Assembly: GCF_041886205.1 (NCBI RefSeq)
Contig: NZ_CP169029.1
DNA from: Escherichia coli
Lineage (GTDB): Bacteria > Pseudomonadota > Gammaproteobacteria > Enterobacterales > Enterobacteriaceae
DNA: 64,000 nt
Reading direction: 5' to 3' (one strand)
Positions 10,187-59,476 of the stretch are shown in pieces. The position numbers and the translations under genes are program-made. Numbering within the stretch: the stretch's first letter is position 1; every line of letters starts with the position of its first letter. The notes under the pieces were generated by a model. That model had not been told where the DNA came from, ran no database searches, and saw nothing but the letters and a program-made list of their open reading frames with translations.

Positions 10187-12988
10187 TTATTCGACGTTCA
10201 GCGCGTCATTAACCAGATCTTGTTGCTGTTTCTGGTGAACGGACATATACCCTACCGCCGGAGAGGCGGAGGCCGGGCGGCCTGCATAACGCAGAGAAGC
10301 CCCAAACGGAATCACTTCACGGAAATGATGCTGGCTGCAGTACCATGCGCCCTGGTTGAGCGGCTCTTCCTGGCACCAGACAAAATCCTTGACGTGAGCA
10401 AACTGCTGCAACACTTCCTGCATCGCTTTATGCGGGAACGGGTAGAGTTGCTCGATACGCACAATGGCGACATCGTGTTGATTGTTCTTACGGCGTTGTT
10501 CCAGCAGGTCGTAATAAACCTTACCAGAACACATCACTACGCGCTTCACGCCCTTCGGATCAAGCTCGTCGATTTCACCGATGGCTGGCAGGAAGGTGCC
10601 GTTCGCCAGTTCTTCGAGGCTGGAAACCGCCAGCGGATGACGCAGCAGGGATTTCGGCGACATCACGACCAGCGGACGACGCATCCCGCGCAGCGCCTGA
10701 CGACGCAGCATGTGGTAAACCTGTGCCGGGGTAGACGGTACGCACACCTGCATGTTTTGCTCAGCACAAAGTTGCAGATAACGTTCCAGACGCGCGGAGG
10801 AGTGCTCCGGCCCCTGCCCTTCGTAACCGTGCGGCAGCAACATCACCAGACCACACATCCGGCCCCATTTCTGTTCGCCAGAGGAGATGAACTGGTCGAT
10901 AACCACCTGCGCACCGTTGGCGAAGTCACCGAACTGAGCTTCCCAGATAGTCAGAGTGCGTGGTTCTGCGGTGGCATAACCGTATTCAAACGCCAGCACT
11001 GCTTCTTCAGACAGTACGGAGTCCCAGACACGGAATGCGCCCTGCCCGTTATGGATATGTTGCAGCGGCGTGTAAGTGGAACCGTTAGACTGGTTGTGGA
11101 TAACCGCGTGGCGGTGGAAGAAGGTACCGCGACCGGAGTCTTCACCCGACAGGCGAACCGGAATGCCTTCGTCAACCAGCGTGGCGTAAGCGAGGTTTTC
11201 CGCGCCGCCCCAGTCGAACAGTTTCTCACCGGCTGCCATTGCCTGGCGATCGCCATAAATCTTGGCAACGCGAGACTGCATTTCAACCGCTTCCGGCACC
11301 GTGCTGATGCGTTTAGCCAGTTCCTGCAGGCGCTTCATCTCAACTTTGTTCGGGTACTCTTCGTCCCATTCGTGGTTGAGGTACGGCGACCAGGTGAAAG
11401 AGTGCATGTTCATCGGACGCCACTCTGCTACCACGCAATCGCCAGCATCCAGCGCATCGCGGTACAGGTTAACCATCTCGGTGGCATCTTCCAGCGTCGC
11501 CACTTTTTCCTGCTCCAGCTTGTCAGCGTAGATTTTGCGCGGTGTCGGATGTTTTTTGATTTTCTGATACATCAGCGGCTGGGTTGCGCTCGGCTCGTCG
11601 GCTTCGTTGTGGCCGTGACGGCGGTAGCACACCAGGTCGATGAAGACATCACGTTTAAAGGTGTTACGGAAATCGAGCGCCAGACGGGTCACAAAGGCAA
11701 CGGCTTCCGGATCATCCGCGTTAACGTGGAAAATCGGTGCCTGAACCATCTTACCGATATCAGTACAGTACGGTGTAGAACGGGCATCCAGCGGGTTAGA
11801 GGTGGTGAAGCCAACCTGATTGTTGATAACGATACGTACCGTACCGCCAACTTCATAACCACGCGCTTTCGACATGTTCAGAGTTTCCTGAACCACGCCC
11901 TGCCCGGTCACTGCGGCGTCACCGTGGATGGTGATTGGCAGCACTTTGTTGCTGCTCGGCTCATCAAGTCTGTCCAGACGGGCACGAACAGAACCGATAA
12001 CGACCGGGCTTACAATCTCAAGGTGAGACGGGTTAAACGCCAGCGCCAGGTGCACCAGGCCGCCATCGGTCTGGAAGTCAGACGAGAAGCCCATATGGTA
12101 TTTCACGTCACCCGTGCCGAGGTGTTCTTTATGTTTACCGGCAAACTCGTCGAACAAGTCTTGCGGTTTTTTACCCAGCACGTTCACCAGCACGTTCAGA
12201 CGACCACGGTGCGCCATCCCGAGAACCACTTCGCGGGTGCCGCTGTTGCCAGCGTGGCGGATCATCTCTTTAAGCATCGGGATTAACGCGTCACCGCCTT
12301 CCAGCGAGAAGCGTTTTGCGCCAGGGAATTTTGCGCCGAGGTAACGTTCAAGGCCTTCAGCGGCGGTCAGTTCGCTTAAGAAGCGTTTTTTCTCTTCGCT
12401 ATTGAAAGTCGCGCGACCAGACTCGATACGCTGTTGGATCCAGCGTTTTTCTTCGGTGCTGGTAATGTGCATATACTCGGCACCAATCGGGCCGCAGTAG
12501 GTTTGCTTGAGGGCTTCCAGCAGCTCGCCGAGTTTCATGGTTTCTTTGCCGCTGGCAAATGAACCGACGTTGAAGGTCTCCTGGAAGTCTGCTTCGGTCA
12601 GATCGTGGAAAGACGGATCCAGATCGGCCACTTTATCTTGCTGCCACAGTCCCAGCGGATCGAGATTCGCATGCTGGTGACCACGGAAGCGGTATGCGTT
12701 AATGAGCTGCAGGACTTTAACCTGCTTCACATTGGTGTCAGGGTCGGAGATCGTTGAAGAGTAACGTGAAGCGTCTTTCGCCAGGCGGCGGAAATATTCA
12801 CGCGTTTGAGAGTGGAATTGATCCGGTTTGACTCCCGTACCAGGTAACTGCTGGAACGTCGAACGCCAGTTAGCGTCAACCGAGTCAGGATCGGTTAAGA
12901 AGTCTTCATAGAGCTGTTCTATCCAGCTCTGGTTTGCGCCAGAGAGGTAAGAAGAGTCCAACCAGGCTTTCAAAGCGCTGTTCTGCAT
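10187..12988 (-). CDS. sucA: 2-oxoglutarate dehydrogenase E1 component
   Basis: 933-aa [33 protein letters not shown]... Confidence 0.97.
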
Positions 12989-13166
12989 CGTGATCCCTTA
13001 AGCATCTTTTTTATGCTTACTTCGCCGTGGATACTACCACGCACAGTGATGTGCGTGCCGGGGTTCACTTGCGAGCTCTTGTCTACGTAGTGGCTCGCGA
13101 AGGAACCTTTAAAAACTGTCTTAGTGTCAGGGGCAGTTTTTAAAGATTTCCTGCATTTCTTTGTTA

Positions 13167-13287
13167 CGCCTGATGCGCTGCGCTTATCAGGCCTACGGGT
13201 AATGGCTTGTAGGCCGGATAAGGCGTTCACGCCGCATCCGGCACTGGTTGCCTGATGCGACGCTTGCGCGTCTTATCAGGCCTACGG
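13167..13287. repeat. REP/BIME cluster in sdhB-sucA intergenic region
   Basis: REP palindrome motifs (gccggataaggcgttcacgccgcatccggc, cttatcaggcctac) seen directly. Confidence 0.7.
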
Positions 13288-13288
13288 T

Positions 13289-14005
13289 TTACGCATTACG
13301 CTGCAACAACATCGACTTGATATGGCCGATGGCGCGCGTCGGGTTCAGCCCCTTCGGACATACACTGACGCAGTTCATGATGCTGTGACAGCGGAATACG
13401 CTGAATGCATCGCTCAAACCGTCGAGGCGGCTGTCAGTCTCGGTATCACGGCTATCGATCAGGAAACGATATGCCGCTAACAAGCCTGCCGGGCCGATAA
13501 ACTTATCGGGATTCCACCAGAAAGACGGACAAGAGGTTGAACAACATGCGCAGAGAATACATTCATACAGCCCGTCGAGTTTTTCGCGCTGCTCTGGCAT
13601 CTGTAAATGCTCGCGAGCTGGCGGATTTTGTCCATTATTCAACAGGTAAGGCTTAATTTTCTCATATTGCGCATAGAATTGTCCCATGTCTACCACCAAA
13701 TCGCGGATCACCGGTAAACCTGGCAGCGGGCGAATCACAATCTTCTTGCCCGGCTGGTTGAGTGCCGAAATCGGGGTAATACAGGCCAGACCATTCTTGC
13801 CGTTCATGTTCAGACCGTCGGAACCGCACACACCTTCACGACAGGAGCGGCGGAACGACAGGCTGGGATCTTTCTCTTTCAGCTGGATAAGCGCATCCAG
13901 CAGCATCATGTCGCGACCTTCTTCCGCTTCCAGGGTGTAATCCTGCATACGCGGAGCATCATCAACATCCGGGTTATAGCGATAAATTGAAAACTCGAGT
14001 CTCAT
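13289..14005 (-). CDS. sdhB: Succinate dehydrogenase iron-sulfur subunit
   Basis: 238-aa ORF with Cys clusters for 2Fe-2S/4Fe-4S/3Fe-4S centres. Confidence 0.97.
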   Translation of the reverse strand: MRLEFSIYRYNPDVDDAPRMQDYTLEAEEGRDMMLLDALIQLKEKDPSLSFRRSCREGVCGSDGLNMNGKNGLACITPISALNQPGKKIVIRPLPGLPVIRDLVVDMGQFYAQYEKIKPYLLNNGQNPPAREHLQMPEQREKLDGLYECILCACCSTSCPSFWWNPDKFIGPAGLLAAYRFLIDSRDTETDSRLDGLSDAFSVFRCHSIMNCVSVCPKGLNPTRAIGHIKSMLLQRNA

Positions 14006-28962: not shown

Positions 28963-30627
<1,665 letters not shown>

Positions 30628-59430: not shown

Positions 59431-59438
59431 GAAATGCG

Positions 59439-59476
59439 AAACAGCCCCGGTGAAATCCGGGGCTGTTTCAATTATT
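59439..59476 (+). terminator. Intrinsic terminator after asnB
   Basis: aaacagccccgg-tgaaat-ccggggctgttt followed by an AT-rich tract. Confidence 0.6.

Follow-up and report, generated by a model that had tools for sequence, protein, structure and literature searches.

RNase III processing stems are a familiar feature of polycistronic mRNAs, with the rpsO-pnp leader and the intercistronic sites of phage T7 as examples, and the sucA, sucA-II and sucC motifs in Rfam stem from other proteobacterial lineages. The sdhB-sucA spacer of Escherichia coli is itself a textbook case of intra-operon control, and the locus as described is already known. Three RNase III sites and a weak Psuc promoter are assigned to this spacer (Cunningham & Guest 1998, as cited in PMC9731577, PMC5371410 and PMC6393394), the three sites lying upstream of the GlnZ site (PMC9731577), and an internal terminator and a secondary promoter are described by Conway et al. 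(PMC4161252, Fig. 3). The seed of the small RNA GlnZ, UUGCCGUGGAAA, base-pairs with the sucA leader according to Miyakoshi et al. 2022 (PMC9731577) and a preprint by Walling et al. 2022. PMC9731577 further reports that the target was validated by compensatory mutation, that a purine-rich stretch of 15 nt near the ribosome-binding site is required both for basal translation of sucA and for its repression by GlnZ, that SucA but not SucB is lowered in an rnc mutant, and that repression of SucA by GlnZ requires RNase III. An earlier note on this DNA, made from the letters alone, had read the gap as a partial terminator or processing site with an internal suc promoter, together modulating sdh versus suc expression, and published work on this locus says the same.

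The window analysed here is a stretch of 64,000 nt from an E. coli contig (NZ_CP169029.1), in which the 300-nt gap 12989..13288 forms the spacer between sdhB (13289..14005) and sucA (10187..12988). Both genes lie on the minus strand, so that the spacer is transcribed from 13288 down to 12989. It differs by a single base from the corresponding region of E. coli K-12 MG1655 (NC_000913.3 758406..758705), and published K-12 coordinates can therefore be transferred (window = 771694 - K-12 coordinate). On the RNA, three REP units are followed by a sucA leader in the order P1, P2, P3, GlnZ site and P4, the last of these next to the Shine-Dalgarno sequence:

13250..13285, minus strand: REP1, the first REP on the RNA, with an internal palindrome; Rfam RF02564
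13209..13243, minus strand: REP2, in orientation opposite to REP1, with which it makes a BIME-like pair; Rfam RF02564
13167..13198, minus strand: REP3, a lone REP hairpin of -14.5 kcal/mol
13101..13152, minus strand: P1, an RNA helix with the 12-bp inverted repeat as its core, brought to 18-19 bp by the flanks AGGAA / UUCCU
13062..13107, minus strand: P2, GCGAGCC...GCUCGC closed by GGUUCC / GUGAACC; -18.5 kcal/mol, z = -4.7
13038..13057, minus strand: P3, the sucA-leader hairpin of 8 bp with a 4-nt loop; arms 13038-13045 and 13050-13057
13021..13032, minus strand: GlnZ sRNA target, single-stranded AUCCACGGCGAA, which pairs with the GlnZ seed UUGCCGUGGAAA (PMC9731577)
12999..13019, minus strand: P4, 7 bp UAAGCAU / AUGCUUA with the purine-rich loop AAAAAAG; -5.7 kcal/mol, z = -4.1
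12986..12988, minus strand: start codon of sucA from the gene layout, with a published Term-seq 3' end on its U (12987)

Three of these elements had been called in the earlier note, and each is present: the leader hairpin at 13038..13057, with 8 bp in place of the 7 noted; the perfect 12-bp inverted repeat with a 15-nt spacer at 13107..13145, exactly as described (arms 13107-13118 and 13134-13145); and the REP cluster at 13167..13287, which resolves into three REP units and a match to RF02564. P2 (13062-13107) and P4 (12999-13019) were absent from it, as was the minus-strand orientation; the palindromes are identical whichever strand is read.

The spacer is strongly structured. Folded as a whole it reaches -119 kcal/mol (z = -6.9 against shuffles), and the folding energies that the earlier note had proposed as a check show every individual hairpin to be more stable than shuffled versions of itself (z from -2.8 to -7.7). 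The window contains four perfect inverted repeats with arms of 12 bp or more and a spacer of 3-30 nt, where a first-order Markov model predicts 0.175. The other three, at 1016-1047, 29023-29056 and 59438-59469, are probably terminator hairpins. A search of Rfam 15 at E <= 1 matched only naRNA4, a REP-derived family, within the spacer, and no sucA leader family. For comparison, the sdhB-sucA spacers of 80 gammaproteobacterial genomes were collected, 30 of them Enterobacterales loci. Beyond the Enterobacterales the P1-P4 leader motifs are absent, and the spacers are shorter and mostly carry a plain hairpin and a U-run after sdhB.

The upstream part of the spacer belongs to the REP/BIME family. 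Its units are imperfect palindromes of about 35 nt in alternating orientation, with dispersed extragenic copies and a variable tandem number. REP1 and REP2 together fold into a duplex of about 33 bp (-48.9 kcal/mol, z = -7.7), the longest and most stable helix in the gap. The match to naRNA4/REP325 (RF02564) covers 13212-13282 with 88.4 bits (gathering score 59.5); the family scores 53 bits on the operon's sense strand and 88 bits on the opposite one. With a 400-nt query, REP-like matches were found at a median of at least 39 places per E. coli genome; the 178 nt outside the REPs have a median of one place per genome and were found in 5425 of 5426 complete genomes. The sdhB stop codon occupies 13289-13291, and the REP1 stem begins 3 nt past it. 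Liang, Rudd and Deutscher reportedly found in 2015 that a REP located about 15 nt or less from a stop codon can lower translation of the upstream gene; if this is true, output of SdhB could drop in REP-bearing strains. The number of REPs in the spacer differs between E. coli strains, being 0, 3, 4 or 8:

E. coli AQ15, spacer of 200 nt: no REP, with the GC-rich hairpin GCCGGGGAAAUCCCCCGGC in place
E. coli K-12 and the present window, spacer of 300 nt: three REPs
E. coli Esc19, spacer of 361 nt: two 94-nt tandem units
E. coli 25DN, spacer of 550 nt: four 94-nt tandem units

Most Enterobacterales, and some E. coli strains, have no REPs in this spacer. A GC-rich hairpin lies at most about 15 nt upstream of P1 in some 20 of 29 loci, and REP-free E. 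coli AQ15 has this same layout of GC-rich hairpin followed by P1. Judged from these sequences, the REPs look like a lineage-specific stand-in for an ancestral protective hairpin after sdhB.

Published RNA ends, which the earlier note had suggested mapping across the gap, place a 3' end directly behind this cluster. Adams et al. 2021 list Term-seq 3' ends at 758531 and 758707 (PMC7815308 supplement). The first, at window 13163, falls between REP3 and P1, at distances of 4 nt from the REP3 stem and 11 nt from P1. The second, at window 12987, is the U of the sucA AUG and lies 12 nt beyond P4; this end appears in two of the 3'-end tables and is listed as not Rho-dependent (PMC7815308 supplement), and could represent a leader-derived fragment or a cleavage tied to repression by small RNA and Hfq. 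A third landmark comes from Gordon et al., who recorded 0 wild-type reads against 305 in the rnc mutant at 758515 of NC_000913.3 (PMC5371410). This peak of the rnc/WT coverage ratio corresponds to window 13179 and falls within REP3, outside P1.

A scan of 12800-13500 for intrinsic terminators (GC-rich stem plus U-run) returned none on either strand; REP3 is followed by CGUAACAAAG. P1 was considered as the terminator hairpin of sdh and rejected, as the mapped 3' end precedes P1 on the RNA and P1 has no U-run behind it. Nor did the gap contain a sigma-70 promoter, defined as -35 and -10 hexamers with 16-18 bp spacing and at least 9 of 12 matches; a weak extended -10-like TGGTAGTAT at 13031-13039 is a visual candidate only. 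The labels "terminator" and "promoter" for this spacer thus rest on the literature.

The main addition from the comparison concerns P1. The inverted repeat extends to 15-nt arms that are 93% complementary, and the RNA is predicted to fold into an 18-bp helix with one bulge (-18.4 kcal/mol, z = -4.3). Conservation of the repeat, another check proposed in the earlier note, extends across the order: 29 of the 30 Enterobacterales loci have P1, whose stem measures about 16-22 bp there and includes the flanking AGGAA and GGUUCC. Covariation was scored for 19 pairs in an alignment of 28 sequences with the long loops trimmed. Here, 91% of cells were paired, compared to 33-62% with slid partner columns, nine of the 19 pairs carried changes on both sides, and the observed score was matched by none of 500 shuffles. 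P1 was also predicted independently by RNAalifold. Compensatory variants include CUCUAAAAACCGG / CCGUUUUUAGAG in Yersinia and CUUUGAAAGCUG / CAGUUUUCAAAG in Klebsiella sp. BIGb0407, and in Erwinia psidii and Rosenbergiella the stem sequence is wholly replaced while the helix is retained; the counted alignment does not include E. psidii, whose replaced stem was misaligned by MAFFT. Read as the sense strand, 91.0% of cells pair vs 87.0% for the antisense, with 49 G-U cells vs 28 A-C cells, a weak difference of 4 points. The loop varies from 3 to about 136 nt across loci. Taken from sequence comparison, this pattern fits a helix that would act as RNA and whose loop would be irrelevant.

The earlier note had offered a different function for the same repeat, a protein-binding palindrome, which in its most specific form would be a DNA site through which a dimeric regulator such as IHF or Nac acts on the internal suc promoter. 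The arms are AT-rich and near identical in many genera, as such a site might be. Cunningham and Guest reportedly observed in 1998 that IHF represses Psuc. Binding of Nac at the sucA promoter is reported in PMC9731577. The half-sites, however, would be spaced anywhere from 3 to about 136 bp apart, where an operator calls for constant spacing and a conserved sequence, and both the compensatory substitutions and the replacement of whole stems keep the pairing and not the sequence. Arms that covary around a loop of such variable length argue against a palindrome recognised in DNA. The IHF consensus WATCARNNNNTTR with up to one mismatch is absent from 12989-13288, its nearest occurrence being at 13310-13322 inside sdhB, and the sigma-70 scan gave no promoter in the gap. 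We therefore regard this function as very improbable.

Several loci show what the P1 loop can accommodate. An ERIC-like element sits in the loop in Enterobacter sp. Bisph1 and in Phytobacter, where the ERIC primer sequence matches, and something similar was seen by eye in Salmonella SL1344; the Pseudocitrobacter loop holds a BoxC-like element, CCCUCUCCC / GGGAGAGGG. ERIC-like insertions, called by matches to the ERIC1R and ERIC2 primers and in Salmonella by eye only, have arisen independently at three points of the spacer: in the P1 loop (L005, L006), in the interval between P2 and the GlnZ site (L018, L020), and in the interval between the GlnZ site and P4 (L002, Salmonella SL1344). Such inserts always lie between conserved RNA modules or within a loop. 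In E. coli B2.3 (L085, NZ_CM185023.1), a deletion has removed the 5' arm of P1, so that the last REP unit runs directly into the loop of this helix; the 3' arm and the remaining leader are retained.

The explanation that we consider best, with a probability of roughly 60%, is that the REPs form a 3'-end barrier for sdh and that they are followed by a conserved structured sucA leader in which P1 is an RNase III stem. The read-through sdhCDAB-sucABCD transcript, unstable and 10 kb long, would be cut in the spacer. RNase III would cut P1, an AU-rich double-stranded RNA of 18-19 bp, as one of the published sites, and so separate the sdh and suc halves. The sdh half would then be trimmed by 3' exonucleases back to the REPs, that is to REP3, so that the REP/BIME cluster would most likely serve as 3'-end barrier and stabiliser of the sdhCDAB mRNA. 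P2, P3, the GlnZ site and P4, which are known or likely determinants of sucA translation, would all remain on the downstream fragment. This scheme builds on what has been established here or in the literature, namely the structures and their covariation, the RNase III dependence of the spacer, the position of the 3' end and the pairing of GlnZ. We infer the placement of the RNase III cuts in P1 rather than in the REP1/REP2 duplex, and also the way in which such cleavage would raise SucA output. The stable end at 13163 lies downstream of all three REPs, from which it follows that the end-generating event occurs after them, and cleavage in P1 with trimming to REP3 would fit the published rnc-dependent loss of coverage at 13179.

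RNase III acts on intramolecular duplexes about two helical turns long. Both P1, with 18-19 bp and one bulge or mismatch, and the REP1/REP2 duplex, with about 33 bp, are plausible RNase III substrates, and the cuts could instead fall in the BIME duplex, with P1 conserved for another reason at the RNA level. P1 might then be a folding insulator that shields the sucA leader from variable upstream repeats, or a base-paired 5' cap that stabilises the processed or promoter-derived suc mRNA. The REP duplex is longer than P1 and is the most stable helix in the gap, and the REP of GlnZ is published to be cut extensively by RNase III in vitro, which makes the duplex a strong alternative substrate. For an RNase III substrate, a bulged stem of 18-19 bp is on the short side, and the coverage-ratio peak at 13179 falls in the REP part (REP3), not in P1. 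P1 also appears dispensable in at least one strain, since E. coli B2.3 lacks its 5' arm, and the preference for the sense over the antisense strand is weak at just 4 percentage points. None of the REP, BoxC-like and ERIC-like inserts interrupts the P1 arms, P2, the GlnZ site or P4, as a modular, insulated leader would predict. Against cuts in the REP duplex, REPs are absent from most Enterobacterales and from some E. coli strains and thus cannot explain conservation of P1 across the order, and the stable 3' end retains three REPs, which places the dominant cut elsewhere than in REP1/REP2. Overall, we hold this alternative to be possible, at about one chance in four, and keep P1 as the preferred RNase III stem.

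Downstream of P1, P2 and P3 (P3 at -12.9 kcal/mol, z = -3.0) show compensatory changes among 11 Enterobacteriaceae sequences. Within E. coli, the P2/P3 part of the leader (window 13035-13107) occurs as two alleles, a K-12 type and an E. albertii-like type, the latter 80-90% identical (about 87%) and found in 1114 of 5425 E. coli genomes. The alleles differ in P2 (GCGAGC/GCUCGC vs GCGGAC/GUCCGC), and the P3 loop is longer in the E. albertii-like type (L083, L084, L059); the compensatory P2 and P3 changes of this allele were read in L083 and L084. The P1 hairpin and P4 are identical between the two alleles in the genomes read. A long-range pairing of 13097-13115 with 13007-13025 (79% complementary) was considered and rejected: the E. 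albertii-like change of CUUCGC to CUUAGC is uncompensated, and the complementarity is wholly absent from the Yersinia and Photorhabdus leaders.

The GGUUCC motif is common to the base of P1 and the closure of P2, which makes the extension of P1 and the closing of P2 alternative pairings. GGUUCC is invariant across the order, and the GAAC in GUGAACC is nearly so. In E. coli the two pairings are near equal in predicted energy (-28.0 vs -27.4 kcal/mol), and this raises the idea of a two-state junction, in which GGUUCC would pair 5'-ward to lengthen P1 or 3'-ward to close P2 and so tune translation of sucA. Cleavage by RNase III or the binding of a factor might decide which state prevails. The lowering of SucA but not SucB in the rnc mutant (PMC9731577) would agree with a switch of this kind. 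Both partner sequences are invariant, however, so that covariation cannot tell the pairings apart, and the two helices could also stack coaxially with no switching involved. We know of no ligand or factor for the GGUUCC junction. We consider such a junction doubtful, and we think it just as unlikely, in a broader form, that the enteric sucA leader is an undescribed order-wide cis-regulatory RNA whose GGUUCC toggle, through cleavage of P1 by RNase III or through another factor, controls how much sucA is translated, separately from sdh and sucB.

In the distal part of the leader, CCACGGC with its flanks at 13021-13032 is complementary to the GlnZ seed, and the sequence is that of the K-12 construct validated in PMC9731577. 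CCACGGCG is retained in most Enterobacterales leaders, with departures in Pantoea, Rosenbergiella and a few Enterobacteriaceae. P4 is present in all 30 Enterobacterales loci, in the compensatory variants AAGCAU/AUGCUU, AAGCAC/GUGCUU, AAGCC/GGCUU and AAGCUU/AAGCUU, and its 3' arm continues straight into the Shine-Dalgarno sequence AAGGGA (12994-12999). An overlap of P4 with the published purine-rich region of 15 nt is probable. In Acerihabitans arboris (L032), the spacer is reduced to 68 nt and has no P1, P2 or P3; the GlnZ target, P4 and Shine-Dalgarno sequence are kept, which indicates that the distal half of the leader can stand alone.

One unstable 10-kb transcript encodes two enzyme complexes of the TCA cycle, and the spacer sets the ratio between them; it is also the point at which nitrogen status enters carbon flux via GlnZ, as already published for E. 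coli and Salmonella. What the comparison adds is modest and descriptive: P1-P4 are under selection at the RNA level across the Enterobacterales, and mobile repeats (REP, BoxC-like and ERIC-like) have repeatedly been inserted between the modules or in loops without disrupting them.

Set beside the systems that it most resembles, the locus combines features of several. With the REP/BIME elements of E. coli it shares imperfect palindromes, about 35 nt long and ending in GTAGGCC...GGCCTAC, that alternate in orientation and lie outside genes, as well as a copy number in the tens per genome and a tandem number that varies between strains. It differs from naRNA4/REP325 (RF02564) in its stronger match on the operon-antisense strand, and the role of the spacer copy is most plausibly protection of an mRNA 3' end rather than production of a nucleoid-associated RNA. 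The resemblance to the RNase III stems of rpsO-pnp and phage T7 lies in an intercistronic helix with a dispensable loop, in the published rnc-dependent processing of the spacer and in the altered downstream expression; P1 differs in being just 18-19 bp and AU-rich, and in that its cleavage would follow from the model proposed here. The regulation of sucA by GlnZ (PMC9731577; Walling et al. 2022) is matched directly, as the target AUCCACGGCGAA and the purine-rich region are present in this leader, whose sequence there is identical to K-12; the text of those papers centres on the target site and does not describe P1-P4 as covarying helices. Like the sucA, sucA-II and sucC motifs of Rfam, the enteric leader is a conserved structured leader of 2-oxoglutarate dehydrogenase or succinyl-CoA synthetase genes, but it differs from them in giving no match at E <= 1, and the enteric P1-P4 leader is absent from Rfam 15.
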